The translations under genes were made by a program, and so were the position numbers. Positions 4,137-41,836 of a DNA stretch of 64,000 bases are shown piece by piece; positions within the stretch are counted from its first letter, which is position 1; each line of letters opens with the position of its first letter. Location: positions 5,359 through 69,358 of the forward strand of contig CALXVQ010000001.1 of assembly GCA_944392135.1 (NCBI GenBank), given 5' to 3'. The notes beneath the pieces are model-generated. The model had not been told where the DNA came from. It worked only from the letters and a program-made list of their open reading frames with translations, and searched no databases. Origin of the DNA: an uncultured Rickettsiales bacterium. Lineage in GTDB: Bacteria; Pseudomonadota; Alphaproteobacteria; Rickettsiales; UBA1997.

Positions 4137-6464
4137 ATGAGAAATATTTCCAAGAAGTATAGTAAGAATATTGCATATTCCAATAACTTTGCATACATTG
4201 TTAATCTTACAAATAATAAAATTAAAAATAAAAAATTATCAAACAACATATATGGCTACAATCTTATTACTTTAAGTATGGTTGTACTTATTATGGGTGT
4301 TATAATGACAGCTCTTATAGGTTATTATGATGCTTTAAACATCAACAGAAGAACAACCATGACAGAGGATAAATTTAAAATAATCAACACATCATTAGTA
4401 GCATATCTTGCAAAGAATGGTAAGTTTCCTTGTCCGGCTCCATTAGATTGTGATTTACAAGGTTGTAATAATGACAGTGTTTTCACAGAGAAAGTTTTAG
4501 GAATAGAATTTAGACAAGACAGAGACATTGACAATGACTGTATTGCAGATAATTCTGGTGTTTTTGAATCAAAAAACGAAAAAGGAGAAAAAATTCTTTA
4601 TGGAAATGTTCCAGCTTTATCGTTAGGTTTAGATAATAATTATTTAATAGATAGTTGGCAAAATAAAATTGTTTATATTATTCCAGACATACTTACAAAA
4701 GACAATTCATTAAAAAATATATTATTAAACAAAGATGCAAGAGATCCAACTATTTCAGATGAATATGTAAAAGATGGTGAAATATTTTTATTATTATCAA
4801 ATAATGTTAACACTTCCGGTGCTTTCCCATACGAAAACAGAGAAAGCAACGATTTTTCTAGCCTTATTAGTTCATCGCATAACGAAGATAAATATAATCT
4901 TCCACAAAAAGATTTTACCATTGATTTAGAAAATGCAAAACAACTAAAATTTCATACCAATATAGATAATTTACATGATGCAATTAGAAAAAATTTTATA
5001 GATGAAAGTGATATTGGAGCCCCAGATTGTGCTGAGACAACAGAAACAGTATTACTTATCGATGATACTGGCAATAGTTCCGAGCCTGATTCTATACCAT
5101 ATGTTGATAAATATAATGATGTTCATAAAACTCAATGGAAAGACGATTCTACAGCGGTTAAAAATTATAAAGCAATACCATTTAAAATTCCAGATGATGT
5201 AACAGAAGTTTTTATTGAATTATGGGGGGCACAAGGTGGTGGGCAAGATTGTGCTGGAGAAGGTGATATGGGTATGTTAGGTGGCAAAGGTGGTTATACC
5301 TATGGATTTTTAGACACTACAGATGAAAATTTAGAAAAAATTGGTGTTAAAGATAGAACTATATATTTTTTTATTGGCGGATATGGAAAAAATGTTGCTA
5401 GCAATAAAGGTGGTGGTGGTGGTTGGAATGGTGGCGGTGGAGCTGCTACAGGTACCATATCATCGAAAAAAGAAGGTGCTGGTGGTGGAGCAACTGATGT
5501 TAGAACATCTGCGAATTTATCTAATCTCGCAGATTGGAAAAGTACTTTGAGTAGTAGATTAATGGTAGCTGGTGGTGGTGGTGGAAGTTCTGTTGGTGGT
5601 TTAACATATGATCAAGAAAAAGGTGGTGCAGGTGGTGGTGGAAATAATAATGGTTCAAATAGTGGCTCACATGGTGGTGCAACACCTGGACGTGGTGGAT
5701 GTGCCATAGGTGATAGTGATGGTAGTTGTTGCAAAATAAATCCAGCTAATATTGGCAATAATGGTGGTGGAGGAGGCTATTATGCCGGTGGAGGAGGTGG
5801 TTTATCAAATGGATGTTCAGCAACATCTGGTGGTAATTATGCCGGTGGAGGTGGTGGTTCTGGTTATATAAATAATAGTATAATATCGGACAGGAAAACA
5901 CCATGTAGTGTTAAAGAGGCTTGTACAGATACTAAAAAAGGTGGAAAAGATAATAGTTATGGTCGTAATGATAAATGCAGTAAAAGAGGTGATGGAATAG
6001 CAGGAACTGCAAAGAATGGCCAAGCATCAATTATTTTTATAGGTGTTAAAAATGATAAAAAGGAAGAGCCATTTACATATTATTATACATTTACATTTAA
6101 ACAAGCAAAGGCTGGTGAAGTTAGATTTGCCGATGAAGTTTGTCCATCTAATGTGTCAGATCCTGTACAAAAAAGTGATTTTTATACAGTATCTACACAT
6201 AATTCAGCTTCTAAGCCAGCAAAAAAATGTGGTGATAATCAACAATGGGAACAAAATTTTGAATATACTTGTAAAGTATTGCCAAAATGTGAAAACCCTG
6301 TTAAAAAATTTTCAGGTGTTGATTGGGGTGATATAAATTATGATATTGTAAATACTGGAATCATTACAGGCACAGATAATACTACTAATACTATTGTAAA
6401 ATATAAATGTATAGTAGAATTAGATGAAACTGGAAATTATACAGCATCTTATATAAGATTATAA
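4137..6464 (+). CDS. type IV pilin/pseudopilin-like N-terminus fused to a large glycine-rich domain and a Cys-containing C-terminal domain
   Basis: Pilin-like hydrophobic helix GYNLITLSMVVLIMGVIMTALIG, with T instead of the usual E5. Pilin-core-like LVAYLAKNGKFPCPAP and DSWQNKIVYI. Then a glycine-rich domain signature: FKIPDDVTEVFIELWGAQGGG...GGKGGYTYGFL...IYFFIGGYGKN...GGGGGWNGGGG...GAGGGATDVR...RLMVAGGGGGS. Confidence 0.6.
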   Translation: MRNISKKYSKNIAYSNNFAYIVNLTNNKIKNKKLSNNIYGYNLITLSMVVLIMGVIMTALIGYYDALNINRRTTMTEDKFKIINTSLVAYLAKNGKFPCPAPLDCDLQGCNNDSVFTEKVLGIEFRQDRDIDNDCIADNSGVFESKNEKGEKILYGNVPALSLGLDNNYLIDSWQNKIVYIIPDILTKDNSLKNILLNKDARDPTISDEYVKDGEIFLLLSNNVNTSGAFPYENRESNDFSSLISSSHNEDKYNLPQKDFTIDLENAKQLKFHTNIDNLHDAIRKNFIDESDIGAPDCAETTETVLLIDDTGNSSEPDSIPYVDKYNDVHKTQWKDDSTAVKNYKAIPFKIPDDVTEVFIELWGAQGGGQDCAGEGDMGMLGGKGGYTYGFLDTTDENLEKIGVKDRTIYFFIGGYGKNVASNKGGGGGWNGGGGAATGTISSKKEGAGGGATDVRTSANLSNLADWKSTLSSRLMVAGGGGGSSVGGLTYDQEKGGAGGGGNNNGSNSGSHGGATPGRGGCAIGDSDGSCCKINPANIGNNGGGGGYYAGGGGGLSNGCSATSGGNYAGGGGGSGYINNSIISDRKTPCSVKEACTDTKKGGKDNSYGRNDKCSKRGDGIAGTAKNGQASIIFIGVKNDKKEEPFTYYYTFTFKQAKAGEVRFADEVCPSNVSDPVQKSDFYTVSTHNSASKPAKKCGDNQQWEQNFEYTCKVLPKCENPVKKFSGVDWGDINYDIVNTGIITGTDNTTNTIVKYKCIVELDETGNYTASYIRL

Positions 6465-6493
6465 CCATAAAAAATCATCAGTTTAATATTATT

Positions 6494-7765
6494 GTGGTGT
6501 GAGGTCTCTAACCCCACACCTGATGTTTACAGATGATAGAGTTTTATAAAATCAATTTGCGAAGTTAATTTTTTTCTGTGGTGTGAAGTCTCCCGACCCC
6601 ATACCAAAAGAGACTACCATAGTATCCCATCCCAAGATTGCCACGGCTTTTTCAAAGCCTCGCAATGACGCTTCTTTTTTTCGTCATTGCGAGCGAAGCG
6701 AAGCAATCCATAAACCACCAATAGCTAATATAAAAATAGAAAAGAAAAGAATTCCATGAATGAATAATTATGTCTCATACCGAGATTGCCACGGCTTTTG
6801 CAAAGCCTCGCAATGACAGGCCAAGAATAAACGAGATTGCCACGAGTTGCAAGCAACTCTCGCAATGACGATGTGGGAGTACTGTCATTGCGAGGAGTGA
6901 AACGACGAAGCAATCCACAAACCACTGATATTTCATTTATTCACAGAAAAAATAAAAAATTTCACCAATAGAATAATTAATTATATAATTATAATAATTA
7001 ATACAAAAACAAAAAGAAAAAGAAGCTATTATTATTTATCAAGTCCAAGAATTAATTTCAAATGAAATATTAATTTTCAATTTTCAATTTCTTATAGATT
7101 ATCATAAAATTTTGTTTGACTATTATAATGTTCTATCCCGAGATTGCCACAGCTTTTTCAAAGCCTCGCAATGACAGGCTAAGAATAAACGAGATTGCCA
7201 CAGGCCTTCGGCCTTCGCAATGACGAGTTTGTGTATACTGTCATTACGAGCGAAGCGAAGCAATCCACAAACCACAAACTACCACCCCTTTGTCATTGCG
7301 AGCAAAGCGAAGCAATCCATAAACCACCAATAGCTAATATAAAAATAGAAAATAAAAAGAATTCCATGAATAAATAATTATGTCTCATCCCGAGATTGCC
7401 ACGGCTTTTTCAAAGCCTCGCAATGACGAGTTTGTGTATACTGTCATTGCGAGCAAAGCGAAGCAATCCACAAACCATCAATAACCTATTCATTCACAGA
7501 AAACCAAAAAAATTCACTACCACTCATCCCCTTCGTCATTGCGAGGAGTGAAACGACGAAGCAATCCATAAACCACTGATAGCTAATACAAAAATAGAAA
7601 AGAAAAGAATTCACTACTCTCGTCCCCTTTCGTCATTGCGAGAACCGAAGGTTCGTGGCAATCCATCAACCACCATTATTTTATTCATTCATAGAAAAAT
7701 AAAAGAATTCATCACCCTTTGCCCCCTTCGTCATTGCGAAGGCCAAAGGCCTGTGGCAATCCACA
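6494..7765. repeat. intergenic array 1 of hairpin modules (GTCATTGCGAG-[variable stem-loop]-GTGGCAATC and relatives)
   Basis: About 14 modules in both orientations, for example 6835-6869, 7193-7224 and 7631-7664. They are interleaved with AT-rich linkers (AAAATAGAAAAGAAAAGAATTC..) and GGTGTG..CACACC hairpins at 6494-6520 and 6578-6603. Confidence 0.9.
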
Positions 7766-8212
7766 ACCACTGTCATTTATAAATAAAATATAATAAACTA
7801 ATTTATTTATTAGTTTACCAGATTATAAAATAAGTCATCCCAGTTCTTATTATTTTCTTCTATTAATTCTATTTTTTTACTTCTAGAACCAGCTTTTAAT
7901 TGTTTTTCTCTTGAAATTGCATTATACATATCATCATAAACTTCATAATAAACCAATTTATCTACATTATATTTCATTGTAAATCCTTCTATTTTCTTGG
8001 ATTTGTGTTCCGATACTCGTCTTAATAAATCATTTGTGACACCAATATATAATGTACCATGTTTTTTATTTGCTAATATATATACATATGAAGTTTTATT
8101 CATTAATGAAGTATCTTTTTTTAAGAAAAATATAACAATTATTATTAAAATAAAGAGTTTTTTATTTTAATAAATTAATGGATTGCCACGAACCTTCGGT
8201 TCTCGCAATGAC
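7730..8212 (-). mobile_element. 483-bp unit: GIY-YIG gene bounded by inverted hairpin modules (copy 1)
   Basis: Ends are GTCATTGCGAAGGCCAAAGGCCTGTGGCAATCC (7730-7762) and GGATTGCCACGAACCTTCGGTTCTCGCAATGAC (8180-8212), in inverted orientation. The whole unit is near-identical to 59620-60102 on the other strand. Mobility is a hypothesis. Confidence 0.45.
7810..8103 (-). CDS. small GIY-YIG nuclease family protein (YhbQ/COG2827-like), copy 1
   Basis: 97 aa. The sequence SYVYILANKKHGTLYIGVTNDLLRRVSEHKS...KLVYYEVY...AISREKQLK carries the GIY...YIG motifs plus conserved R and E. Identical protein to 59729..60022. Confidence 0.85.
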   Translation of the reverse strand: MNKTSYVYILANKKHGTLYIGVTNDLLRRVSEHKSKKIEGFTMKYNVDKLVYYEVYDDMYNAISREKQLKAGSRSKKIELIEENNKNWDDLFYNLVN

Positions 8213-8875
8213 GGTGTGTGGATGTCGGTTCTCGCAGTGACGAGTTGGTGGGTAATTATCATAATGATGAGTTGGCATGTAGATCGTCACCATTCCGAGA
8301 TTGCCACAGCTTTTGCAAAGCCTCGCAATGACAGGCCAAGAATAAACAAGATTGCCACAGGCCTTCGGTCTTCACAATGACGAGTTTTGGTTGGGTATGG
8401 TAGTCGCCATATCAAGCTTGCCACGAGTTGCAAGCAACTCTCGCAATGACGAGTTGGTGTATACTGTCATTGCGAGCGAAGCGAAGCAATCCATAAATTT
8501 ATTGTAGTGTAGTTGTGAAGTTGGTTTTTGTTAGTCTTGGGTGTTGGATAGGGATATCTAACGCCACAAAGGGGTGCAAAAAAATGGTAAACTCAACCCC
8601 CCACTGACTTCGTCAGCACCCCCCTTACAAAGGGAGGCAAGCCCCACAAACCAATACTCACCACCCTTCGTCATTGCGAAGGCCAAAGGCCTGTGGCAAT
8701 CCATAAACCACAAAACCACCACAAAAAAACAGAAAAAAAAGAAATCACTATTATTTATCAAGTTAAAGAACTAATTTTTAATGAAATATTAATTTTCAAT
8801 TTTCAATTTTCAATTTCTCTCTCAATCCCCTTGTTGCTTTGCAACTTCCCCTCTTACAAATGGAGTCACTTGTCT
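8180..8875. repeat. intergenic array 2 of hairpin modules plus C-rich box and TTTTCAA heptamer tract
   Basis: Modules at about 8180, 8296, 8350, 8416, 8466 and 8668. C-rich box at 8594-8645, with a degenerate copy at about 8821-8870. (TTTTCAA)x3 at about 8795-8818. Confidence 0.9.
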
Positions 8876-9061
8876 TTGGCATTTGATGAGACATCAAACA
8901 CCACAAAAAAGCAAAAATTTATAAAAAAGTAGAAAATTCAAATTTTTTTATTAAAAATTTAAACATAGTATTTTCATACTCTCAAAGACATAAAAAATCA
9001 AAAAGTTAAAATAATTTTTAATTTTTTATTAAGCTATATATAAAAAGTAATATAAAAATAC

Positions 9062-9240: not shown

Positions 9241-10908
9241 ATGAGTAATGATTTTTATAAATTAAGAATTTTTCTTTTTAAAGATGATGTTGAGAATTTA
9301 AATGAATGTTTTAATATAGATAAAATAAAAGATAAACAAAATTATAAAGAATTAAAATTTGAAAATGATATTGAAGCAAAAGGATATATTTGGAATAATA
9401 TATCTGCTGATGATAATAAACCAAAATGGTTTAATATTATAGATTTTTTTGATGATGATAATTCAAATCAAATTAATACTTTAAAAAATACAATACATTC
9501 AATTTTTGTATTAAAAGTTCAAAATAGAATATTTGGATTTAATTTTGGACAAGGATATTGGGCTTTTAATGATGAAAAAATAGAAACTGATTTTGGTTTA
9601 AGGATTCTTTTAAATATTGTTGATAAATTTAATCATCTATCATCTCTATCTATAGATGAAAATATAATAAATAAAAAAATAGATGCAAATAAATCAAATG
9701 AACTTAATGTTTTTACACCAAATAAAGATATGGATATAGTAAAGTCATTTATTGGAACAGTTAAGGAAGAATATAAAAATATTTTTTCAGAAAAAATTAG
9801 TGCAACTATAAATTCAATATTAATTAATTATAATATTGAAAATGCCAAAGATGATTTAATAAAATTATGTTTAAATTTAATAAAAATTAATTCTATAAAA
9901 GATTATGAAAAAAATATAAAATATCAATGGATTATTAATAAAAGATTAGAAAAAGATCAAGTTATATTAAATAATATAAATCAAATAATTATTGACGATT
10001 TAAAGAATAAAAATGATAACTTACAATTAAATTTATTTGATTTATCTTTTGAAAATTCATCAACATCTTATTTTAAGTATGCATTAAACGATCATACTAA
10101 ACATAAAAATTTAAAAGAATTTAATGATTTATCTATAAATGATTATTATGCTGAAATTTCAAAAAGAGGTGTTACTATTAATAATTTAGAAGATTTAAAA
10201 CATCATTTCATTTTGGATCAAAACAATGAAATACTTGCTAGTATTTATAATTCTTTGATTGCAGAAGTCAATTTTAAAAATTCAATTTATATATTATATC
10301 AAGGCAAGATTTTTAAAATATCTACTGATTATAAAAATGAAATAGATAATTTTTTTCAAACTTTGATTAATGACTCTCAAGATATAAAACTACCAGATTA
10401 TAATTCACAAAATGAACATGAATATAATGAAATTATAAGTAATAATTATGGTTATGTATGTTTAGATGCAAAGAATGTTACAATAAGAGATAGTGATAAA
10501 TTTGAAATTTGTGATGTTTTATCAAATAAAAAAGAATTTTTTTGTATTAAACATAAAAATTATTCATCAACATTAAGTCATCTTTTTAACCAAGCTCTAA
10601 ATTCTATAAAAATATTAAGAAATGATAAAAAGATAAGAGAAAAAGCAAATGATCAAATAAAAAAAGAACTGAATAAAAAATCAAAATATTTTAATATAAA
10701 TGAAGATTTTTCTGATTATCAAATTACTGATGATTCTTTAAAAGATTCTACTATTGTATTTGCTGTAATAGATAAAGAAACCAATAAAAGAAAATTACCA
10801 TTTTTTAGTGTAATTTCCTTAAAACAAGCAGTTGATTTATTATATGAAAAGGGATATAAAGTAAAATTTTGTTGGATTAATAATAATAGTTTAAAAAATG
10901 AAAAATAA
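9241..10908 (+). CDS. TIGR04141/DUF6119-like protein with a putative PD-(D/E)xK-type nuclease motif
   Basis: Family-like landmarks recalled from memory: N-terminal YKLRIFLFKDD, KPKWFNIIDFF, FGFNFGQGYWAFNDEKIETDFGLRILLN, and C-terminal LDAKNV...FEICDVLSNKKEFFCIKHK..STLSHLFNQALNS...LPFFSVISL. Overlaps hsdS by 11 nt. Confidence 0.5.
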   Translation: MSNDFYKLRIFLFKDDVENLNECFNIDKIKDKQNYKELKFENDIEAKGYIWNNISADDNKPKWFNIIDFFDDDNSNQINTLKNTIHSIFVLKVQNRIFGFNFGQGYWAFNDEKIETDFGLRILLNIVDKFNHLSSLSIDENIINKKIDANKSNELNVFTPNKDMDIVKSFIGTVKEEYKNIFSEKISATINSILINYNIENAKDDLIKLCLNLIKINSIKDYEKNIKYQWIINKRLEKDQVILNNINQIIIDDLKNKNDNLQLNLFDLSFENSSTSYFKYALNDHTKHKNLKEFNDLSINDYYAEISKRGVTINNLEDLKHHFILDQNNEILASIYNSLIAEVNFKNSIYILYQGKIFKISTDYKNEIDNFFQTLINDSQDIKLPDYNSQNEHEYNEIISNNYGYVCLDAKNVTIRDSDKFEICDVLSNKKEFFCIKHKNYSSTLSHLFNQALNSIKILRNDKKIREKANDQIKKELNKKSKYFNINEDFSDYQITDDSLKDSTIVFAVIDKETNKRKLPFFSVISLKQAVDLLYEKGYKVKFCWINNNSLKNEK

Positions 10909-12025
10909 TTGGGAAATAAAAAAACTTAAAGAATTAGGAGCTATTTTTTTAGGTGGGACACCAAATACATCTAAAAAAGAGTATTGGAATGGTGATATTA
11001 ATTGGCTTACACCATCTGAAGTTTCAAAATTAAAAAGTAAGTTTATTTTTTCTACAGAAAAAACAATTACAGAGTTAGGACTAAAAAATAGTTCTGCAAA
11101 AATTTTGCCAAAAAATTCTTTAATTGTTTGTACAAGGGCAACTATTGGGGATCTGTGTATAAATAAAATAGACATGTGTACCAATCAAGGTTTTAAAAGT
11201 ATAATTGTAAATAAAAATAATAATGTAATTTTTCTTTATTTTTTGCTTTTATTTAATAGAAGAAAAATTATAGAAAAAGCTAGTGGTAGTACATTTTTAG
11301 AAATATCAAAATTTGATTTTGAAAATTTGTCTTTTCCCATCCCCCCACTGGAAGAGCAAGAGAAAATTGTATCAATTCTTTCAAAGCAAGATGAGGTGAT
11401 TGAGAAGCTTGAGAAGTTGATTGAGTTGAAGGTTAGGCAGAAGAAGGGCTTGATGCAACGACTTTTAAGTGGTAAGTTAAGGCTAAAAGGTTTTAGTGGT
11501 GATTGGAAGGAAAATATTATGCAAAGTATAATATTGATTTTTAAAAAAACAAAACATAATTCTTCTGATGGCAAAAACAATGGAAAATATCCGTTTTTTA
11601 TAAATAATTCTGAAAGTTTCTTAAAATTTTTAGATGAATTTGATTATGATGCTGAATGTATAATAGCTAATACAGGTGGAAATGCTTTTTTTGATTATTA
11701 TAATGGTAAATTTTCTGCTAGTAGTGATTGTTTTATATTTTCATCTAAAATTAATACATTATTTTTATATTATTTTTTAAAATCAATTGAAAAAACTGTA
11801 AATATAGTAGGTTTTGCTGGTTCTGGAATAAAACATTTAAATAAAAAATGGTTTTATAAATTAAAAATACTAATCCCACCAACAATAGAAGAGCAATCGG
11901 CTATTGCTTCAATTCTTTCGAAGTGTGATGAGGAAATTGAGTTGTTGAAGAAGAAGTTGGGGTTGTATAGGGGGCAAAAAAAGTGGCTTATGGAAAAGCT
12001 GTTGAGTGGTGAAATAAGGGTTTAG
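10898..12025 (+). CDS. hsdS: type I restriction-modification specificity subunit HsdS
   Basis: Two target-recognition domains, each followed by the conserved coiled arm. The arms are PPLEEQEKIVSILSKQDEVIEKLEKLIELKVRQKKGLMQRLLSGKLRL and PPTIEEQSAIASILSKCDEEIELLKKKLGLYRGQKKWLMEKLLSGEIRV. N-terminal GGTPNTSKKEYWNGDINWLTPSEV. Confidence 0.88.
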   Translation: MKNNWEIKKLKELGAIFLGGTPNTSKKEYWNGDINWLTPSEVSKLKSKFIFSTEKTITELGLKNSSAKILPKNSLIVCTRATIGDLCINKIDMCTNQGFKSIIVNKNNNVIFLYFLLLFNRRKIIEKASGSTFLEISKFDFENLSFPIPPLEEQEKIVSILSKQDEVIEKLEKLIELKVRQKKGLMQRLLSGKLRLKGFSGDWKENIMQSIILIFKKTKHNSSDGKNNGKYPFFINNSESFLKFLDEFDYDAECIIANTGGNAFFDYYNGKFSASSDCFIFSSKINTLFLYYFLKSIEKTVNIVGFAGSGIKHLNKKWFYKLKILIPPTIEEQSAIASILSKCDEEIELLKKKLGLYRGQKKWLMEKLLSGEIRV

Positions 12026-12028
12026 GCA

Positions 12029-12973
12029 ATGGAAACTAATGTTTATTTTTGTAAGAAAAATGGTATACTTTTGATGGCATATCAAAATGGTAAAAATCAA
12101 AATATATTTTTGCGAGTTAGTCGTGCTGATTATGCTCCATTTATAGAAACTTGTTTAATATGTGATAATAGTTATGATATTGAAAAAGTTATTACAAATT
12201 GTTATGAATATCCTATAATGGAAAAAAAATATATGAAAATTGGTGTTAAATATAAACATATTTGGAAACCTTTTATAATTAATAATGTCGAAAATGAACT
12301 TGAATTTACAATTTCTGAAGCATATCGTGCAAAAAGGGATTTGCAGATTCTTATAGAGAAAATGCAGGAGTTGCTTTTGTTTGTTGAACCAAGTAATGAA
12401 GGTTTAAAATCTTATAGTCATAAAGCAAGGGAATTATTGTTTTTGGCTTGTTCTGATTTTGAATCGATGTTAAAAAAATATAATTTTGGTAAAAATGAAA
12501 GAATGAATGATTATATTGAAATAATGAAATATATTGATTTGTCTAAATTTAAAATACAGCTTGTTGGTTATAGTAAATCGTATAAATGTTCTCCTTTTGA
12601 AAATTGGAATGTGAAAGATCCATCTAAATCATTATCTTGGTATTATGCTTATAATCAATTAAAACATAATATAGATAAAAATTTTCATTTGGCAACATTG
12701 GAAAATTGTATTAATGCAATAAGTGCAAATATAATATTATTTACAATTAGATATTCTACGAATTATATATATGCAAAAGATGATACTTGTTCAAGTTTGA
12801 TTAGGGGTTCATTTGATTATAGAATAGAAAATTCTATGGATTTTTATATACCTATTTTTGAAGGTGAAAGAAGTTATAGTGGGGCATTTGGGAATAGCTA
12901 TAAATTTTATAATGGTGAAGTGGTATCAAATATTTATGATATTGTAAAACCATTGTCATTTGTGGAAATATAA
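12029..12973 (+). CDS. hypothetical protein inserted between hsdS and hsdR
   Basis: 314-aa ORF, 3 nt after hsdS and 16 nt before hsdR. Predicted helical C-terminal half with SWYYAYNQLKHNIDKNFHLATLENCINAISANIILF. No family recognised with confidence. The true start may be the internal MAYQNG. Confidence 0.5.
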   Translation: METNVYFCKKNGILLMAYQNGKNQNIFLRVSRADYAPFIETCLICDNSYDIEKVITNCYEYPIMEKKYMKIGVKYKHIWKPFIINNVENELEFTISEAYRAKRDLQILIEKMQELLLFVEPSNEGLKSYSHKARELLFLACSDFESMLKKYNFGKNERMNDYIEIMKYIDLSKFKIQLVGYSKSYKCSPFENWNVKDPSKSLSWYYAYNQLKHNIDKNFHLATLENCINAISANIILFTIRYSTNYIYAKDDTCSSLIRGSFDYRIENSMDFYIPIFEGERSYSGAFGNSYKFYNGEVVSNIYDIVKPLSFVEI

Positions 12974-12989
12974 ACAATTAAGGTAAAAT

Positions 12990-15900
12990 ATGGTGAAATA
13001 TAGTGATTTTATTGAAAAAATTTCTTCTCAACAACCGGCGATTAAGTTGTTGGAAAATATGGGGTATAAGTATATGTCTCCGTTTGAGGCTTTTGAGCAA
13101 AGGGGGGATTATAGAAATGTTGTTTTGAAGGATGATTTGAGGGAATTTTTGCAAAGGCAAAGGTTTGAGTATGATGGTAAGGAAAGTGCTTTTTCGCAGG
13201 CTAATATAAATAATGCTATTAAGGATGTGGATGTGTCGTTGAATAATGGGTTGGCACAGGCATCGCAGGATGTTTATGATATGTTGTTGTATGGTAAAAG
13301 CTATAATGAAATATTGGCTGATGGTTCTATAAAATCGTTTAATTTGAAATATGTGGATTGGGAGAATATAAATAATAATATTTTTAGGGTTGTTGATGAA
13401 TTTACTGTTTCTAATATTGATACAAGAGAAAATAAAAGGCCGGATATTGTTGTTTTTGTGAATGGTTTGCCTTGGGTTGTTATTGAATGTAAAAGATCAT
13501 CTGTTGATGTTGGTATGGGGGTTAGACAAAATTATGAAAATTTTTCTGTGATTCCGCAGTTGTTTAAGCTTGCACAAATAGTTTTGGCTTTGAATCCTAA
13601 TGAGGTTAAGTATGGAACTTGTGGAACTGGTAGGGAGTATTTTGTTAATTGGAAGGAAGAGTTTGATGGTTGGCTTGAAGAAAAATGTAAAGAGTATGTA
13701 GTTGATAGGAGTGTTAGGGAACAAGATAGGGTTTTGATTTCTTTGCTGTCAAAGGAAAGATTGTTTTTAATTGTGAAAAATTATATTTTGTATGATTATG
13801 GAATAAAGAAAATAGCAAGATATCAGCAGTTTTTTGCATGTGAAAAAACAATAAAAAAAGTTAAAAGTGGAAAGGGTGGATTTATATGGCATACACAGGG
13901 TAGTGGTAAGTCTTTAACTATGGTTATGCTTGTAAAAAGGATTAAAGAAGAATCTATTAAAAATGATTGTTTTTTTAAGAATCCAAGGTTTTTGATGGTT
14001 TGTGATAGGCTTGAATTGGATGAGCAATTGATGAATAATTTTGCTAAAACAGGTATGCGACCTAATAGGGCTACGACTGGAAATAATTTAGTAAGTTTGA
14101 TAAAAGATGAAGGTAAAACTATTATTACTACTGTTATTCATAAATTTGAAACGGCACAAAGTAAATTGCAACCTATAAATGGTAAAAATATATTTATATT
14201 TGTTGATGAATGTCATAGGACTCAGTCAGGAAATTTTCATAATTATATGAGAGATATATTGCCTAATGCTATTAAGATAGGTTTTACAGGAACTCCAATT
14301 TTTAAAAAGGAAAAGAAACAAACACATAGAATTTTTGGTGATCTTATTGATTCTTATACAATTCTTGAAGCAGAAAAGGATAAAGTTATTGTTCCATTAA
14401 ATTATGAAGGAAGGATAATTCCACAAAAAATAGCTGATGATAATACTATTAATAAATGTTTTGAACAAATATGTTTTAATGTGAGTGATGAAGAAAAGGA
14501 GAAGTTAAAAACAAAATGGAGTAGTTTGACAAAAATAATGCAAGTGGATTCAAGATTGCAAATAATAGCTTTTGCTATTGCTAAACATTTTGCTAGTTTT
14601 AAAAATGAGATGGTGAAAGCTATGGTTACTGAAAGTTCAAGAGTTAATGCTATTAAGTTGCATAGATTTTTAAGAGATAATGGTATAAGAAGTAAAGTTG
14701 TTATTTCACCGAATACACTTAAAGCAGAAGGAATTGAAGAAGCTAGTGATTATGATTTAAAATATATTGAAGATTTTTTTAAGGAAGAAGTGGAAAGGGA
14801 TTTTGGAAAGAATTATGAAAAATATGAAAGATATGTTAGAAGTAATTTTATTGATTCAGAAGGTTGTGTTGATGTAATTGTAGCAAAAGATAAATTATTG
14901 ACAGGTTTTGATGCTCCAATAGCAAAAATATTATATATAGATAAACCTTTAAGGGATCATAATTTATTGCAAGCAATAGCAAGGGTGAATAGAATTTATA
15001 CTGGAAAAGAGTATGGGCAAATTATTGATTTTTATGGTGTTTTTGGGAATTTAAAGTCGGCCATTGATATTTATTCTAATGCAGAATATGGACTTGGTAA
15101 GTTTGATGAAAATGATATAAAAGGAACATTATTAATAAAAGATGATTTAATTAGAGAATTAAGACTTAATTATGAAAATTTAATATCTATTTTTAGTGAT
15201 TTTGATATTCATGATAAAAATGTAGATATAGAAGTTTTAGAGGATTATTTAAAAGATTCTAGTGAAGATAAAGAAATTGGAAAAATATCGGATAAAAGAA
15301 AAGATTTTTATGATAAACTAAATAAATTTTCATTATCTTTGGAATGTGTATTAAGAAATTATGAAGCTTATAAGTCTCTTGAAGAAGAAGAGATTAAAAA
15401 GTATAAAGAAGATTTAAAATTTTTTCAAGCATTAAAAAGTTCTATAAAAATTAGATATGGTGATGATTCAAAAATTGATTTTTCACTAGAAGATAAACAA
15501 ATAAAAAGATTATTAAATTCATATCTTAGTTCTGAAATGGATAAAATTATTGTTAATAATTTTAAAATTACAGATAAAGAAGCTATGGAAAGAGAATTGG
15601 CAAAAATGTCGGGAAATAAAAGTAAAGCTGATGCAATAGCTACTCGTATGGATGCACTAATTAAGGAAGAATTTTTTAAAGATCCATTGTTGTATAAAAA
15701 TTTTACTGATAAAATTAAAGAAACTATTGAAGAATATGAAAATGAAAGAAGAGATGAAGATTATTTTCTTGCTATGCAAAAAATAGCAGAAGATTATAGG
15801 GAAGGTTTTACAGGAAATAAATATCCAGAAAATATAGAAAATGATGCAAATTCAAAATCATTCTATGGTTGTTTGAAAATATCTATAGATGAAAAAAGGA

Positions 15901-16157
15901 ATATTATAGAAAATAGTGAGTTTGATTTAGAACTTGGTAATTTATCAATTAAAATAAAAGAATTGTATAAAGATAAAATTAAACCAAATTGGGAGAATAA
16001 TATGGTAATAAGGCAAAGTATTAATAGAGAAATTGATAAATTTTTATTTAAATTAATGGATGATTTCCATATTGATTTAAGTGATGATGATTTAGATAAA
16101 ATTGAAGAAAATATTTTTAAAACAGCTGTAAAAAGATATGAATACAAACTTATTTGA
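12990..16157 (+). CDS. hsdR: type I restriction endonuclease subunit HsdR
   Basis: HSDR_N nuclease motif RPDIVVFVNGLPWVVIECKRS. Helicase motif I HTQGSGKSLTM and DEAH-type motif II FVDECHRTQ. Later motifs FTGTP and LLTGFDAP...QAIARVNR. 1055 aa. Confidence 0.92.
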   Translation: MVKYSDFIEKISSQQPAIKLLENMGYKYMSPFEAFEQRGDYRNVVLKDDLREFLQRQRFEYDGKESAFSQANINNAIKDVDVSLNNGLAQASQDVYDMLLYGKSYNEILADGSIKSFNLKYVDWENINNNIFRVVDEFTVSNIDTRENKRPDIVVFVNGLPWVVIECKRSSVDVGMGVRQNYENFSVIPQLFKLAQIVLALNPNEVKYGTCGTGREYFVNWKEEFDGWLEEKCKEYVVDRSVREQDRVLISLLSKERLFLIVKNYILYDYGIKKIARYQQFFACEKTIKKVKSGKGGFIWHTQGSGKSLTMVMLVKRIKEESIKNDCFFKNPRFLMVCDRLELDEQLMNNFAKTGMRPNRATTGNNLVSLIKDEGKTIITTVIHKFETAQSKLQPINGKNIFIFVDECHRTQSGNFHNYMRDILPNAIKIGFTGTPIFKKEKKQTHRIFGDLIDSYTILEAEKDKVIVPLNYEGRIIPQKIADDNTINKCFEQICFNVSDEEKEKLKTKWSSLTKIMQVDSRLQIIAFAIAKHFASFKNEMVKAMVTESSRVNAIKLHRFLRDNGIRSKVVISPNTLKAEGIEEASDYDLKYIEDFFKEEVERDFGKNYEKYERYVRSNFIDSEGCVDVIVAKDKLLTGFDAPIAKILYIDKPLRDHNLLQAIARVNRIYTGKEYGQIIDFYGVFGNLKSAIDIYSNAEYGLGKFDENDIKGTLLIKDDLIRELRLNYENLISIFSDFDIHDKNVDIEVLEDYLKDSSEDKEIGKISDKRKDFYDKLNKFSLSLECVLRNYEAYKSLEEEEIKKYKEDLKFFQALKSSIKIRYGDDSKIDFSLEDKQIKRLLNSYLSSEMDKIIVNNFKITDKEAMERELAKMSGNKSKADAIATRMDALIKEEFFKDPLLYKNFTDKIKETIEEYENERRDEDYFLAMQKIAEDYREGFTGNKYPENIENDANSKSFYGCLKISIDEKRNIIENSEFDLELGNLSIKIKELYKDKIKPNWENNMVIRQSINREIDKFLFKLMDDFHIDLSDDDLDKIEENIFKTAVKRYEYKLI

Positions 16158-20944: not shown

Positions 20945-21930
20945 TCAAGAATAAACGAGATTGCCATGGCTTTTTCAAAGCCTCGCAATGACGAGTTTGT
21001 GAATATCACCCTTTGCCCCTTCGTCATTGCGAGACTTCGTAGAAGTCGTGGCAATCCATAAACCACTAATAGTCAATACAAAAATAGAAAAGAAAAAGAA
21101 TTCACTATTATTTAATAAACCAAAGAATTAATTTTCAATTTTCAATTTTCAATTTTTAATTTCTTTCTCAACCCCCCTGTTGCTTCGCAACATCCCCCCT
21201 TACAAAGGGAGGCAAGCCCCCATAAATCACCACTCACTGCTCTTCGTCATTGCGAGGAGTGAAACGACGAAGCAATCTACAAACAACCAATAATAAACAC
21301 AAAAACAAAAAAGAAAAAGAAATCACTATTATTTATTAAATTAAAGAATTAATTTTCAATTTTCAATTTTCAATTTCTTATGGATTGCCACGAGTTCTAC
21401 AAACTCTCGCAATGACGGTGTGGGTTGAGTGTGATTGTTGCCATACTGAGATTGCCACGGCTTTTTCAAAGCCTCGCAATGACGGTTCTTTTTTTCGTCA
21501 TTGCGAGCGAAGCGAAGCAATCCATAAATCACAAAAAGTTAATACAAAAACAGAAAAGAAAAAAAGCATTCGCTATTTTTAATCAAGTCAAAGAACTAAT
21601 TTTAAATAAAATATTAATTTTCAATTTTCAATTTTCAATTTTCAATTTCTCTCTCAACCCCCCTGTTGCTTCGCAACTTCCCCCCTTACAAAGGGAGGCA
21701 AGCCCCATAAGCCACCAATAACAAACACAAAAACAGAAAAGAAAAAGAATTCCATGAATGAATAATTATACCCCATACTGAGATTGCCACGAGTTGCAAG
21801 CAACTCTCGCAATGACGAGTTTGTGAATACCACCTCTTGCCCCCTTCGTCATTGCGAGGAGTAAAACGACGAAGCAATCTACAAACAACCAATAATAAAC
21901 ACAAAAACAAAAAAGAAAAAGAATTCACCA
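20945..21930. repeat. intergenic array 3 of hairpin modules, C-rich boxes and heptamer tracts
   Basis: Modules at about 20956, 21023-21057, 21245, 21383-21416, 21438, 21495, 21779 and 21846. C-rich boxes at 21169-21221 and 21655-21706. Confidence 0.9.
21618..21645. repeat. (TTTTCAA)x4 heptamer microsatellite
   Basis: Four perfect tandem TTTTCAA units directly abutting a C-rich box. The same tract occurs with 2-4 units at about 7073, 8795, 21133 and 21349, and inverted at 27892 and 28479. Confidence 0.9.
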
Positions 21931-22047: not shown

Positions 22048-22740
22048 ATGAAAAAATTATTTATTCTATTTTTATTAGTATCTTTTAATTGTTTTGCAAG
22101 TGATAATATAAATTTCAAAAATTATCTATTGAAAGGTAATTTTAAAAAAGAAATATTTAGGGAGAATTATTTTTGGAGTTGGGATTTTAGAATTTTTGAT
22201 AATAAAATTTTTTTAAATTTCGAAGGAGATATGGGTGATACAGAAGCCCCAGAAGAATTTCCAAATGGTGAATATGAATTACTTACAGAAAATAATTCAA
22301 AAATAAAAGTAAATGTTAAAAATGGAAAAATACAAGAATTTATATTATTAAGTAATGAAGAAAATTTTAAAAAATATGAAGAAAATATTTCAAATGATTA
22401 TTGTAAGATAGCTATATTTTATTCTAATTATGATATTGTATATAGTGATAAAGAACATAAATATTATTATGTTATACCAGAAAATGGTGTAGTTGATTTA
22501 ATGGGATATAAGGAAAAAATAATTTCTTGCATATTTGATTATCATTCTTGTATTGCTATAAATGGAGAGCATAGCTATATTGTTGTAGATGATATAGAAG
22601 GTAATTCAAAAAATTTTACCACGACAGAAAATAATGATAAAATATTAAAAGAAGTAGCTAGTGATTCAAATATTGCACCGGATATTATAATTAATAATTG
22701 TCAAATTACTTATTATAATAAAAAATACTTCCAATTCTAG
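22048..22740 (+). CDS. secreted hypothetical protein (variable cassette A)
   Basis: The signal peptide MKKLFILFLLVSFNCFA is identical to that of 23840..24346. The mature part is unrelated. Confidence 0.6.
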   Translation: MKKLFILFLLVSFNCFASDNINFKNYLLKGNFKKEIFRENYFWSWDFRIFDNKIFLNFEGDMGDTEAPEEFPNGEYELLTENNSKIKVNVKNGKIQEFILLSNEENFKKYEENISNDYCKIAIFYSNYDIVYSDKEHKYYYVIPENGVVDLMGYKEKIISCIFDYHSCIAINGEHSYIVVDDIEGNSKNFTTTENNDKILKEVASDSNIAPDIIINNCQITYYNKKYFQF

Positions 22741-22786
22741 AATATAAATAAAAAATATAAGCAATTAATATTTATATTGTACTTAA

Positions 22787-23467
22787 ATGGTAAAATTTTC
22801 AAAACCCTTAAATCATGAAGATATGAGAATTACTACGGATTTTCATGATCCAAAAAGGCCTAGCCATTCTGGAATAGATTTTGGTAATAATTCGGATGGC
22901 AAGCCAATTTATGCTGTTGCTAATGGTTATGTTATATATTCAAATATAAGTGGTGGGTATGGAAATACTATTGTAATTAAACATAATGATGGCACATCAA
23001 CACTATATGTCCATATGAAAAATATATCTAATTATAAAGTTGGTGATTATGTTAAACAAAGTAGTATAATTGGCTATGTAGGTAATACTGGAAATAGTAG
23101 GGGTTCTCATTTACATTTTGAAAGAATTGATAAAGAAGGAACCGAATCAATAGAAAAATATTCAGATAATGGCAAACTTGGTTTATTTCCTAAGCAAAAC
23201 AGAATAAACCCACATACAATAATTGACAACAAAACTGGCTACTTTATATGGAGAAGTGAAAAAGATAATAATGTATGTAAAGAATGTACTAGTAGAGATG
23301 GAAAAATATTTGAATATGGTAAAGATATAGAACCACCTTTACACCATAATTGTAGATGTTATATTGAAGATATAGATAAGTCATCATATGATTATAATTA
23401 TATATCTACATCAAAGCATTTTGACAAAGCATTAATTGAATTAAAACAAATACTAAATAATAATTAA
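22787..23467 (+). CDS. M23 family metallopeptidase domain fused to a phage MuF/SPP1-gp7-like C-terminal Cys/His motif; no signal peptide
   Basis: M23 motifs HSGIDFG, GYGNTIVIKH, GNTGNSRGSHLHFE. C-terminal VCKECTSRDGKIFEYGKDIEPPLHHNCRCY resembles the D..C..C...G....PP.H.NCRC motif of the Phage_Mu_F family. Confidence 0.72.
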   Translation: MVKFSKPLNHEDMRITTDFHDPKRPSHSGIDFGNNSDGKPIYAVANGYVIYSNISGGYGNTIVIKHNDGTSTLYVHMKNISNYKVGDYVKQSSIIGYVGNTGNSRGSHLHFERIDKEGTESIEKYSDNGKLGLFPKQNRINPHTIIDNKTGYFIWRSEKDNNVCKECTSRDGKIFEYGKDIEPPLHHNCRCYIEDIDKSSYDYNYISTSKHFDKALIELKQILNNN

Positions 23468-23523
23468 AATTTATAATAATATAAAATTATCATTCTACAA
23501 TAATTAAATAATAATTATGATAT

Positions 23524-23712
23524 ATGATATATTATATTTATATGAAAAATAATATTAAAATTACAAAATCTTTTAAAGAATATTTATATCAAAATAATTT
23601 AGGATTTTCAGTAATTGAATTAGCGATGGTATTAATTATTATAAGTTTAATTATAGGTGTGATTATGGATGGGGTAAAACTTGTTGAGAGTGCAAAAATC
23701 ATAAAAGGATAA
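23524..23712 (+). CDS. truncated type IV pilin-like protein (N-terminal helix only)
   Basis: Prepilin-type motif LGFSVIELAMVLIIISLIIGVI. The ORF ends about 35 aa after the cleavage motif. Confidence 0.45.
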   Translation: MIYYIYMKNNIKITKSFKEYLYQNNLGFSVIELAMVLIIISLIIGVIMDGVKLVESAKIIKG

Positions 23713-23789
23713 TATTATAAATATAAAAATAACTTAATACTATTAATAAAAATAATAATAAGATAAAAATTCTATATAATAAATAAAAT

Positions 23790-23818
23790 TTGACAAAAGT
23801 AAATAATATTATACATTT
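23790..23818 (+). promoter_or_regulatory. candidate promoter (second copy of the duplicated block)
   Basis: TTGACA (23790-23795) in the same conserved block as 21998. Confidence 0.4.
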
Positions 23819-23839
23819 ATAAAAAAATTCTATTATAAA

Positions 23840-24346
23840 ATGAAAAAATTGTTTATTCTATTTTTATTAGTATCTTTTAATTGTTTTGCTGATGATGTAA
23901 GGTCTGATTTTTTAGATATAAAAGAAAAAGATAATCTTAATTGTTATGATGTTAAATTCAATTTTGATAATAAAGAATATGAAGATGTGAGAAATAAGAT
24001 TATTAAAATTGAAAATTTAACAGAATATGAAGATAAAAATTATGTTGGTATTGCTTATTATGATCTAAATTCTGATGGTAAAGATGAAATACTTGCAAAA
24101 GTTTGCAATATTATTATGTATGGTTTTAGTGGATGTGTAATTACAGTATATGAAGATTATAATGATAATTATGAACCAATTGGTATAGATGGTAATTTTG
24201 ATTTATGTATTTCTAATAAAAAAACTAATGGTTATTATGATTTATATACAACTGTTAAAAATACTAGCATGGGAGAAAAGAAAAAATATCCAGATGATTT
24301 TTTGAATATTAGATTATTTAAGTATACAGATGGTAAATATATATAA
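23840..24346 (+). CDS. secreted hypothetical protein (variable cassette B)
   Basis: Identical 17-aa signal peptide to cassette A. The mature part contains DLNSDGKDEI (FG-GAP/Ca-binding-like loop). Confidence 0.6.
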   Translation: MKKLFILFLLVSFNCFADDVRSDFLDIKEKDNLNCYDVKFNFDNKEYEDVRNKIIKIENLTEYEDKNYVGIAYYDLNSDGKDEILAKVCNIIMYGFSGCVITVYEDYNDNYEPIGIDGNFDLCISNKKTNGYYDLYTTVKNTSMGEKKKYPDDFLNIRLFKYTDGKYI

Positions 24347-27734: not shown

Positions 27735-28925
27735 TAGAGTAGGGCAAATTCTTTTGTTTTTTTGTTTTTGTTTTTTTATTGGTAGTGAATTCTTTTGTTT
27801 TTCTGTTTTTATATTGACTTTTTGCGGATTAGGGGCTTACCTCCCTTTGTAAGGGGGGAAGTTGCGAAGCAACAGGGGGGTTGAGAAAAAATTGAAAATT
27901 GAAAATTGAAAATTGAAAATTAATACATAAGAAATTGAAAATTGAAGCACAAAGTGGGAAAATGATAATACTTGCATAATCATTTTAGCTTGTTGTCCCA
28001 CGAAGTGCGAAACGAACGAAGTGAGGATTAAAATTAAAAATTAATACTTCATTTGAAATTAATTCTTTGGTTTATTAAATAATAGTGAATTCTTTTATTT
28101 TCTATTTTTATATTAACTATTAGTGGTTTGTGGTTTGCTTCGTTATTTTACTTCGGATAATAATGAATAGGGCGAATGGTGGTGATTTCTTTTTCTTTTC
28201 TGTGAATGAATAAAATAATAGTCGTTTGTGGATTGCCACAGGCCTTCGGCCTTCGCAATGACGAAAAGTGGTGAGTAGTGGTTTATGGTGGCTTACCTCC
28301 CTTTGTAAGGGGGGAAGTTGCGAAGCAACAGGGGGGTGAGAGAGAAATTAAAAATTAAAAATTGAAAATTAATACATAAGAAATTAAAAATTGAAGCACA
28401 AAGTGGAAAAATGATATGCTTGCATAATCATTTTAGCTTGTCGTCCCACGAAGTGCGAAACAAACGAAGCATAAGAAATTGAAAATTGAAAATTGAAAAT
28501 TGAAAAATAGTTCTTTGACTTGATAAATAATAGTGAATTCTTTTATTTTCTGTTTTTGTATTTATTATTAGTGGTTGTGGATTGCCACAGGCCTTCGGCC
28601 TTCGCAATGACGAAGGGGGTAAAGGGTGATTAATCCTTTTGTTTTTCTGTGAATAAATAAAAGACTAGTGGTTATGGATTGCTTTGTCGTTTCACTCCTT
28701 GCAATGACAAAGGGGGATGGTTGTGGATTGCTTCGCTCCGCTCGCAATGATGAAGGGGTAAAGGGTAGTATTCATAAACTCGTCATTGCGAGAGTTCGTA
28801 GAACTCGTGGCAATCTCGTTATTCTTGGCTTGTCATTGCGAGAACCGAAGGTTCGTGGCAATCTCGTTATGGCAACAGCCACACCCAACCCGCACTGTCA
28901 TTGCGATGGCTTGAAAAGCCTGTGA
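27735..28925. repeat. intergenic array 4 of hairpin modules, inverted C-rich boxes, heptamer tracts and a duplicated ~100-nt unit
   Basis: C-rich boxes (reverse orientation) at 27832-27893 and about 28290-28345. Modules at about 28229, 28578, 28676, 28724, 28781, 28832 and 28896. The ~100-nt unit is at 27921-28020 and 28370-28470. Confidence 0.9.
27892..27919. repeat. (TTGAAAA)x4 heptamer microsatellite (reverse orientation of TTTTCAA)
   Basis: Four perfect tandem units. A further four-unit tract lies at 28479-28506. Confidence 0.9.
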
Positions 28926-29009
28926 TAATCTATAAAAAAGTAAAAAGTATCATTATTGAAAAAATTAAAAATGTAACACTATCACATTATTATTACAAAA
29001 TATAATGTA

Positions 29010-41726: not shown

Positions 41727-41763
41727 TTGTTGACTTTAATAAAACATAGAATATTATGTCTTT

Positions 41764-41810
41764 TGGAGATGGAGTTCTCCTTTAACCGCAACTAGCTGAT
41801 AACTCCTACT
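41764..41810 (+). promoter_or_regulatory. fluoride riboswitch (crcB RNA motif) candidate
   Basis: UGGAGAUGGAGUUCUCCUUUAACCGCAACUAGCUGAUAACUCCUAC matches the remembered consensus GGnGAUGGnnUUCnCC...AACCGC...GCUGAU.A(nnn)CCUAC. The pseudoknot pair is GGAGU / ACUCC. Located 27 nt upstream of the ATG of a cation/H+ antiporter gene. Confidence 0.68.
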
Positions 41811-41836
41811 TTTAAAAACAATATAAGGAGTTTTGT

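Follow-up and report, generated by a model that had tools for sequence, protein, structure and literature searches.

Clustered two-tier hairpins beside a duplicated GIY-YIG nuclease gene of a Rickettsiales bacterium: probable single-stranded DNA recognition sites of the Ssn type

Why should an AT-rich bacterial genome carry dense intergenic arrays of GC-rich hairpins, and what keeps the hairpins paired while their stems change? These questions are raised by a 64-kb stretch of an uncultured Rickettsiales bacterium (GenBank assembly GCA_944392135.1, contig CALXVQ010000001.1, positions 5,359 to 69,358), here called the window; all module coordinates and counts below refer to the full window. An earlier reading of the sequence without database searches (the sequence-only reading) had described a family of hairpin modules in seven arrays and had interpreted their covariation as selection on structure, by implication that of an RNA. 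It overlooked a gene inside the arrays that encodes a GIY-YIG nuclease of 97 amino acids (aa). We consider it very probable that the modules are the single-stranded DNA (ssDNA) recognition hairpins (SRM, similar to the NTS of Neisseria) of this co-encoded nickase, Ssn, and that they act as DNA and not as RNA.

The 11-mer GTCATTGCGAG, with at most one mismatch, occurs 59 times in the window versus 0.09 times expected. A regular expression pairing head and tail (GTCATTGCGA...GCAATC) gave 55 modules in its strict form and 58 in its relaxed form, each 24 to 36 nucleotides (nt) long. A covariance model built from the window copies and scanned over the window found 59 modules, all of which (59/59) were in the seven intergenic arrays and none in genes. 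The previous estimate had been 55 to 60 modules filling about 10% of the window, and the arrays do sum to 5,947 nt, or 9.3%; the modules by themselves sum to 1,824 nt (2.9%). As had also been reported, the modules are GC-rich (0.517 versus 0.261 for the window) and occur in both orientations, with the 58 relaxed modules split evenly between plus (29) and minus (29). The peptides that had been quoted as products of spurious open reading frames (ORFs), LLRRFTPRND, DCFASLAMT, and VIAKAEGLWQS, are present. The 3' end of at least one gene adjoins every array. The proposed array coordinates were correct to a few bases, except that in 27735-28925 the modules fill only 28231-28930:

6494-7765, array 1: 14 modules and AT-rich spacer repeats; located 3' of ssn copy 1
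8180-8875, array 2: 6 modules plus two C-rich hairpin/CTTACAAAGGGAGG repeats and a (TTTTCAA)n tract
20945-21930, array 3: 8 modules, without ssn
27735-28925, array 4: 7 modules at 28231-28930; the left part consists of other repeat families
52612-53465, array 5: 12 modules; overlaps one strain-specific rearrangement breakpoint
59128-59652, array 6: 7 modules, upstream of ssn copy 2
60058-60480, array 7: 5 modules, downstream of ssn copy 2

The low GC content initially led us to weigh mitochondrial GC clusters as the source of the repeats. The window is bacterial, however (GC content of ~26%, dense ORFs, one tRNA, and a fluoride riboswitch), and a mitochondrial origin was dropped because of its dense table 11 ORFs, the riboswitch, a porin, and a type I restriction-modification (R-M) system.

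The nuclease gene, ssn, is present twice, and each copy is bracketed by inverted modules (E and F are module classes defined below):

7810-8103, minus strand: ssn copy 1, encoding a 97-aa single-domain GIY-YIG nuclease, between arrays 1 and 2
59729-60022, plus strand: ssn copy 2, encoding a protein 100% identical to that of copy 1, between arrays 6 and 7
7730-8212, minus strand: module-ssn-module unit copy 1 (module F at 8212-8181, 77 nt, ssn, ~48 nt, inverted module E at 7761-7730)
59620-60102, plus strand: module-ssn-module unit copy 2 (order and spacings as in copy 1)

In both units the GTC heads of the bracketing modules point outward. The units are ~99.6% identical over 483 bp, and the identity ends at the outer GTC of each module; beyond these points the flanks are only ~70 to 85% alike, being mosaics that differ by whole-module insertions or deletions. 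The two copies lie within 52 kb. Because independent metagenome contigs also carry both loci, the duplication is not an assembly artifact.

Pfam PF01541 covers residues 5 to 77 of the Ssn protein (E = 3.6e-17), with no second domain. NCBIfam and PADLOC returned no significant family for it (the NCBIfam intron-endonuclease model scored 19.8 bits versus a cutoff of 56), and the nearest sequence in the PDB was UPF0213 BH0048 (1zg2; E = 1e-4). A protein of the same kind has been characterized: SsnA is a 94-aa single-domain GIY-YIG protein of cd10448 (Chenal et al., Nat Commun 2025, PMC11893778). By BLASTP, window Ssn is 53% identical over 90 aa (E = 3e-38) to a 94-aa ORF of Neisseria gonorrhoeae (L061; L numbers are our locus labels) that is flanked by the ATTCCCGC..GCGGGAAT hairpins known as dRS3. 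From its length, genus, and flanks, we infer that this ORF is the SsnA orthologue, and by way of it the window protein falls within the threshold for homology to N. meningitidis SsnA used in PMC11893778 (E < 1e-10). The mutated catalytic and cofactor residues of SsnA, Y6, Y17, and E64 (N. meningitidis numbering), correspond to Y8, Y19, and E66 in window Ssn, and none of these columns varies among 16 diverse homologues. The window protein is thus a predicted member of the Ssn nuclease family, which it fits in length, single domain, homology, catalytic residues, and flanking hairpins.

The substrate of SsnA is the NTS hairpin, CGTCATTCCCGCGMAVGCGGGAATCYRG, which the enzyme binds in single-stranded form only and on just one of the two strands, cutting a few nt upstream; SsnA is inactive on RNA and does not bind it (PMC11893778). 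Cleavage depends on the three nt that immediately precede the palindrome on its 5' side, and binding on the C right after it. Activity on ssDNA has been shown for the homologues from Nm (N. meningitidis), Ne, Nw, and Wolbachia, NTS-ssnA-NTS is a widespread arrangement, and SRM repeats are enriched in Rickettsia and Wolbachia. In N. meningitidis, the Ssn system reduces transformation by NTS-bearing DNA (all from PMC11893778).

When oriented, the window modules share the scaffold YGTC-ATTGC-GA-(variable stem)-GWR-GCAAT-CC. The GTC head is kept in 56 of 58 modules, and both the ATT at the start of the stem and the C directly after GCAAT are kept in all 58. Position -1 of the head is C in 36 modules and T in 22, and the ATT/AAT pairs are invariant. 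AATC is followed by C (31) or T (27) and then by A (33), so that the tail is often CCA. There are about eight subfamilies, six of two-tier hairpins (A, C, E, F, G, and H) and two short (B and D). All seven stems quoted in the sequence-only reading, which had also mentioned short relatives without an inner hairpin, were found in the window:

Class A: distal stem GGCTTT/AAAGCC
Class C: distal stem GAGTTGC/GCAACTC
Class E: distal stem AGGCC/GGCCT
Class F: distal stem GAACC/GGTTC
Class G: distal stem GACTTC/GAAGTC
Class H: distal stem GAGTTC/GAACTC
Class B (short): GCGAGCGAAGCGAAGC
Class D (short): GCGAGGAGTGAAACGACGAAGC

Folded as DNA, classes A, C, E, F, G, and H form the two-tier hairpin at -6 to -8.5 kcal/mol. 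We analyzed covariation in an alignment of 18 distinct two-tier sequences. The basal helix, ATTGC/GCAAT (5 bp), was 98.9% paired and near-invariant, and it adjoins a conserved 2x3 internal loop with GA opposite GTG or GAA; pairing of these arms across a conserved mismatch had been recognized from the letters. The distal helix has 5 to 7 bp and its loops are mostly of 3 nt, most of them G-N-A (GAA, GTA, GCA), which we list as an argument against an RNA role. Changes on both sides were present at six of the seven distal pairs, and 95.5% of the distal cells were paired, a level reached by 0 of 500 shuffles; slid controls gave 23 to 55%. Thus, covariation exceeded background. Classes G and H are one compensated pair apart, and E and F are three apart. 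The distal stem had been described as always self-complementary, but 6 of 37 distal stems have one uncompensated mismatch, and mutations inside a subfamily are uncompensated. The compensatory variation is real, but it arises between about six amplified founder types rather than many independent stems. Selection on structure is confined to the distal stem, the base of the stem and the flanks being conserved as sequence.

The association of gene and hairpin is not peculiar to the window. We found at least 7,960 homologues of window Ssn, and proteins of Bradyrhizobium and Thermodesulfobacteriota are 60 to 70% identical to it. Many homologues are on very short contigs, which is expected because repeats break assemblies. 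A survey that took one genome per species yielded 80 loci spread over nearly all bacterial phyla, 77 of them usable for flanks. The common layout is a GTCATT-stem-loop-AATCC hairpin upstream, ending ~10 to 20 nt before the start codon, and an inverted copy downstream, with a stem sequence that varies by lineage. A generic detector (GTC, at least five perfect outer pairs, and C) found oriented modules on both sides of ssn in 44 of the 77 loci, an upstream module being present in 52 and a downstream one in 58; in the opposite-orientation control, modules were on both sides in just 5 of 77. The cross-taxon stem covaries at seven of eight pairs, but for the first five only the diversity of pair types is informative because the detector enforces pairing there.

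Using the window covariance model, we found ATTGC-class modules adjoining ssn in ~24 of the 80 loci; the hosts are Campylobacteraceae, Rickettsiales, cyanobacteria, Dehalococcoidia, Bacillota, Saccharibacteria, Woesebacteria, Ignavibacteria, Hymenobacter, and others. The published SRM string matches 23 of the 80 loci, and both hairpin classes are present at one locus only. The ATTGC class is therefore as common beside the closest ssn homologues as the class that the string can find (24 versus 23 of 80 loci). The proteins differ with the hairpins. Residue 72 is G in 19/19 ATTGC-linked Ssn proteins versus W in 33/33 ATTCC-linked ones, and residue 76 is K in 17/19 versus W in 31/33. The motif in the region of residues 71 to 76 is KAGSRxKK in the ATTGC-linked proteins versus KKWNRxWK in the ATTCC-linked ones, and Neisseria SsnA is of the W/W type. 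Mean Ssn identity is higher within a hairpin class than between classes (permutation P of ~0). The ATTGC two-tier class flanking ssn, which the published string does not match, may be new, as may the tracking of hairpin class by residues 72 and 76. A literature search for GTCATTGCGAG returned only irrelevant primer matches, and one pairing GIY-YIG with extragenic palindromic repeats returned no match. In the window, the region in question is encoded at two places:

7876-7893, minus strand: Ssn residues 71 to 76, copy 1
59939-59956, plus strand: Ssn residues 71 to 76, copy 2

In the explanation that we favor, a module would fold into its hairpin when the DNA is single-stranded, as may happen at a replication fork or while DNA is taken up or transferred, and Ssn would bind the base of the hairpin in one orientation. 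Probable determinants are the 5' YGTC head, the ATTGC/GCAAT base with its GA/GWR loop, and the 3' C tail. The enzyme would then nick the single strand a few nt 5' of the GTC. The distal stem would need pairing only, and compensatory drift could have given rise to the approximately six amplified subfamilies. The conserved arms and compensatory inner stems would coexist because the base and flanks are read by sequence, whereas the distal stem is required merely as a stem. The selected structure is most likely an ssDNA hairpin because there is no strand bias and no Rfam match, the flanks critical for SsnA are kept, and ssn is bracketed by modules.

The present analysis contributes the module and array anatomy, the cross-phylum association of gene and hairpin, the homology to SsnA with its catalytic residues, and the strain turnover described below; ssDNA-specific binding and cleavage come from the literature on the Neisseria and Wolbachia homologues. 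Window Ssn would be expected to cut at ATTGC-type modules. Cleavage and recombination at modules may drive array growth, cassette exchange, and rearrangements, and, by analogy with Neisseria, the physiological role might be, for example, to limit recombination of incoming ssDNA.

Several points weigh against assigning the modules to Ssn. The published SRM string, HGTCWYN(0-2)YYVSBRHN(0-5)WNVSBRGN(0-2)RNCYNB, has 0 matches in the window, although the NTS consensus used as a control matches it. No ATTGC module can match the string, because ATTGC after GTC fails at the YY positions, and the string is therefore unusable for counting window modules; the functional definition of SRM (an oriented hairpin of 20 to 50 nt with a 5' GTC and a 3' C) does describe the modules of 24 to 36 nt. 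With nearest-neighbor DNA parameters, the 21 copies of the short classes, B and D, give weak folds. The covariation of protein and hairpin may reflect the shared ancestry of two clades rather than contact, and it is adjacency and covariation that suggest binding of ATTGC hairpins by the G/K-type enzyme. Lastly, PMC11893778, the only paper on the family that we found, reports no ATTGC-linked (KAGSR-type) Ssn as biochemically tested, and our literature search found no later Ssn paper.

The arrays have a complex anatomy of their own. Spacings between modules fall into classes of 9 to 17, 30 to 34, 65 to 66, and 75 to 76 nt. Head-to-tail series consist of a ~100-nt composite of a module and a conserved spacer, CAYAAACCAC...GAATTCACTAC...CCCCTTY; with their conserved AT-rich spacers of ~65 to 76 nt, the arrays are NIME/BIME-like mosaics. 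Head-to-head pairs, 9 to 15 nt apart, join one short-class module (B/D) to one long-class module (A/C/E) in 11/11 cases, with no homodimer. Their tails are GAAGCAATC in the short class and GTGGCAATC in the long class, and their spacers are of few sequence types, e.g., GAGTTTGTGTATACT. Such heterodimers echo those noted in CGTC-tagged repetitive extragenic palindromes (REPs) (PMC3733652). Tail-to-tail units hold AT-rich cargo of 75 to 259 nt, or ssn. An all-against-all BLAST of the arrays showed that they are too mosaic for systematic mapping of recombination junctions.

6636-6708, 6835-6915, 52823-52902, and 59296-59374: examples of head-to-head dimers
6680-6817: gene-less tail-to-tail unit (B> 75 nt A<); a second copy, 95% identical, is at 7289-7427, and the boundaries are at the module heads

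Other repeats are interleaved with the modules. A second family consists of a C-run, a variable hairpin (CTGAC-TTC-GTCAG or GTTGC-TT(T/C)-GCAAC), a C-run, and then CTTACAAAGGGAGG, with six clear copies versus 0.17 expected; in one strain (L087), this family occupies the place of ssn. Tracts of two to four TTTTCAA heptamers (20 overlapping matches versus 0.18 expected) are always inside arrays, usually within a ~100-nt AT-rich unit (..TATTTATCAAGT..AATTAATTTCAAATGAAATATTAA..). This interleaving with two other repeat families resembles the NIMEs of Neisseria. A further type of palindrome, e.g., GGTGTTGGG-TATCTTG-CCCAACACC, is found at array edges. Two of these are directly after stop codons, that of a 775-aa ORF (6496-6522) and that of PyrG (59133-59160), the latter being conserved in L087. 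The edge palindromes could be terminators or another repeat family.

8598-8645, 8827-8866, 21170-21211, 21655-21697, 27841-27880, and 28297-28340 (approximate): C-rich hairpin/CTTACAAAGGGAGG copies
7074-7091, 8793-8817, 21132-21163, 21353-21377, 21618-21649, 27888-27948, 28344-28368, and 28475-28506: TTTTCAA tracts
6496-6522, 6578-6606, 8537-8573, and 59133-59160: edge palindromes

We compared the region between CarD and PyrG, in which arrays 6 and 7 lie, with strain contigs whose CarD protein is identical to that of the window and whose flanking genes are 96 to 100% identical in nt:

CarD-PyrG region, window and L085: 12 modules, ssn present
CarD-PyrG region, L088, L092, and L093: 7 modules, ssn present and 95.2% identical in nt to that of the window
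CarD-PyrG region, L087: 9 modules, ssn absent
CarD-PyrG region, L090: 12 modules, ssn absent

The arrays thus differ between related strains and are not static. The sequence-only reading had named background-level covariation and static arrays as outcomes that would speak against it; neither was found, because the compensatory distal stems are real and the arrays vary between strains. In L087, the same E>...F< module pair encloses 401 nt of other repeats in place of ssn. In L084, whose CarD gene is 92% identical in nt, ssn is at the CarD-PyrG locus and the neighboring modules differ. At ssn locus 1, contigs match the window or break inside the arrays. In L086, L089, and L091, arrays 5 and 6/7 hold the breakpoints of a rearrangement in which the block ATPase-ABC2-PyrG (53491-59440; PyrG is the CTP synthase) is turned around with respect to CarD. 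A simple inversion between these arrays was rejected since, in L095, the far side runs into a 905-aa gene (no Pfam hit) that the window lacks, which points to a more complex event. The most economical reading is that the CarD locus has long housed ssn, that some strains lost the gene, and that it was recently copied or converted to a second locus in the window strain. The differences in module number, presence of ssn, and gene order at the arrays between strains that are ~97% identical may be new.

Could the module-ssn-module unit itself be a selfish element, similar to an insertion sequence (IS) or a homing element and still active, with the gene-less units and the arrays as nonautonomous derivatives that resemble miniature inverted-repeat transposable elements or REPINs? 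Ssn would nick the module heads, and host recombination would copy cassettes between module pairs. This proposal concerns origin and dynamics, and it extends the explanation of the modules as recognition hairpins without excluding it. The ~99.6% identity of the two units over 483 bp, ending at the outer GTCs with flanks of only ~70 to 85%, fits such movement, but could reflect gene conversion between arrays. Orthologous ssn genes are 95.2% identical though their flanking genes are 97 to 99% identical, and two strains lack ssn in the corresponding intergenic region, one of which (L087) has the module pair around 401 nt of other repeats; on the other hand, we found neither a target-site duplication nor a clean empty site, and the presence of ssn at the CarD-PyrG locus in L084 (92% CarD nt identity) speaks for long vertical residence with occasional loss. 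Duplication of the gene-less tail-to-tail unit, again with boundaries at module heads, and the many homologues on very short contigs also favor the proposal, and an IS-like origin of NTS-ssnA-NTS has been raised, purely as a hypothesis, in PMC11893778. Strand-transfer chemistry, however, is not known for GIY-YIG hydrolases. We regard the selfish element as a possibility to be taken seriously but on balance doubtful, and we are similarly hesitant to call the unit a currently active selfish cassette. A bolder version seems to us unlikely: that the ATTGC-type unit is an active mobile or homing cassette of a new mechanism (a GIY-YIG ssDNA nickase mobilized by host recombination), that the arrays are its nonautonomous, gene-order-reshaping progeny, and that residues 71 to 76 (AGSRxK versus KWNRxW) are a swappable specificity module reading the hairpin base. 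If true, these residues would make Ssn enzymes retargetable.

Two other explanations were considered. If the hairpins acted as RNA, being terminators, mRNA stabilizers, or small RNAs, the covariation would reflect selection on RNA structure; every array does adjoin a gene 3' end, compensatory changes are present in the distal helix, and REP-type elements are reported to function as RNA hairpins in some species (PMC3733652). However, both orientations are equally frequent, often in one array. Rfam 15 gave no family in the arrays at gathering thresholds in the whole window and none at E <= 1 in 6400-8950. The conserved, asymmetric single-stranded flanks (GTC and C) are the protein-recognition determinants of NTS, and SsnA does not bind RNA (PMC11893778). 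Separate palindromes after the 775-aa ORF (6496-6522) and PyrG (59133-59160) could be terminators, and a palindrome with a T-run is at the end of the CarD gene (60495-60525). The equality of strands, the lack of an Rfam match, the SsnA-type flanks, and the bracketing of ssn by modules thus run counter to the structured RNA implied by the sequence-only reading, and we consider an RNA role improbable. Classical REP/BIME or REPIN elements mobilized by RAYT, the tyrosine transposase of the IS200/IS605 type, would also give short GC-rich palindromes, head-to-head heterodimers 9 to 15 nt apart, and intergenic mosaic arrays, but the head here is YGTC, not GTAG, and the bracketed gene encodes a GIY-YIG nuclease, not a Y1 transposase (our RAYT scan covered part of the window ORFs). 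Nor has a transposase been associated with CGTC-type repeats (PMC3733652). Mobilization by RAYT is in our view hardly credible.

Some neighboring features deserve mention. Directly beside array 2, the region 9241-16157 looks like a small defense island: a gene for a 555-aa DUF6119 protein is followed by the specificity subunit of a type I R-M system, an ORF of 314 aa, and HsdR, a restriction enzyme of type I. The 775-aa protein (4137-6464) has a glycine-rich domain that matches Pfam ALK_LTK_GRD (PF12810; E = 1e-19) and an N-terminal hydrophobic stretch that by eye appears membrane-spanning. The fluoride riboswitch (RF01734; 55.7 bits) is at 41756-41815, just upstream of a 400-aa ORF (41837-43039). 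Outside the arrays, direct repeats 88 to 92% identical (21933-22111/23725-23900 and 23301-23486/24433-24615) lie in a run of small ORFs (22048-24346) next to array 3 and suggest tandem paralogous genes.

The recognition-hairpin explanation ties the window repeats to an enzyme family characterized only in 2025. Ssn hairpins would account for the fact that ~9% of an AT-rich window is GC-rich hairpin DNA and for its spurious ORFs, and recognizing such hairpins is useful for the annotation and assembly of similar metagenome-assembled genomes. The strain comparison adds data from a natural population: within a species, both the arrays and the ssn cassette undergo turnover and are markers of rearrangement breakpoints, which bears on whether the NTS-ssnA-NTS unit is, or was, a mobile element. 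The G72/K76 versus W/W difference nominates specificity residues in a nuclease family of biotechnological interest (ssDNA tools).

Among known systems, the window is most readily compared with Ssn and its SRM. As there, a GIY-YIG gene of ~95 aa that keeps the catalytic Tyr/Tyr/Glu is bracketed by inverted hairpins, and the hairpins have the GTC head, A-T stem start, and C straight after the palindrome of Neisseria NTS, which contains dRS3. Like the SRM of Neisseria, they are present in many copies in intergenic mosaics (58 to 59 per 64 kb here, hundreds per genome there). The host is a symbiont-type alphaproteobacterium, in line with the enrichment reported for such repeats in symbionts; the nearest named CTP synthases, at up to 80% identity, come from metagenome-assembled genomes labeled Rickettsiales. 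Unlike NTS, which has one continuous 8-bp stem, the window hairpin is two-tier, with a 5-bp ATTGC base, a purine-rich 2x3 loop, and a variable distal stem of 5 to 7 bp; unlike Neisseria SsnA (KKWNRxWK), window Ssn is of a KAGSRxKK subtype; and unlike described Ssn loci, ssn is here in two identical copies within 52 kb.

CGTC-tagged REPs have a CGTC/TGTC head, an A-T stem start, and a CCA tail (Di Nocera et al., BMC Genomics 2013, PMC3733652). They form head-to-head dimers, are in large clusters in Neisseria and Wolbachia, and include Neisseria dRS3/NIME and RPE-4 and RPE-6 of Rickettsia conorii; the authors concluded that they have no dedicated transposase or enzyme and noted that bulged elements may have been missed by their search (PMC3733652). 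The window modules agree with the general descriptor (CGTC/TGTC head, two A-T pairs, and CCA-like tail) and share the head-to-head heterodimers, the mosaic clusters with other repeats, and the predominance in Alphaproteobacteria. They do not fit the descriptor of CGTC-1 to CGTC-4 (a continuous stem of 8 to 9 bp and a loop of 4 to 5 nt), their stem being interrupted and their loops mostly of 3 nt. In the REP/BIME and REPIN-RAYT systems, too, a small nuclease gene is bracketed by inverted ssDNA hairpins that the enzyme recognizes, and the mosaic arrays vary among strains, but Ssn is a GIY-YIG hydrolase and not an HUH Y1 transposase, the head is CGTC and not GTAG, and no covalent intermediate like that of RAYT is known for GIY-YIG enzymes. 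With GIY-YIG homing endonucleases such as I-TevI, Ssn shares the catalytic domain and possibly the spread into cognate sites by recombination repair; those enzymes have extra DNA-binding domains and act on a single long target in double-stranded DNA, whereas Ssn is a bare 97-aa domain with multicopy ssDNA hairpins. The window system is of a known kind, Ssn, and represents an undescribed variant of both the hairpin and the enzyme.

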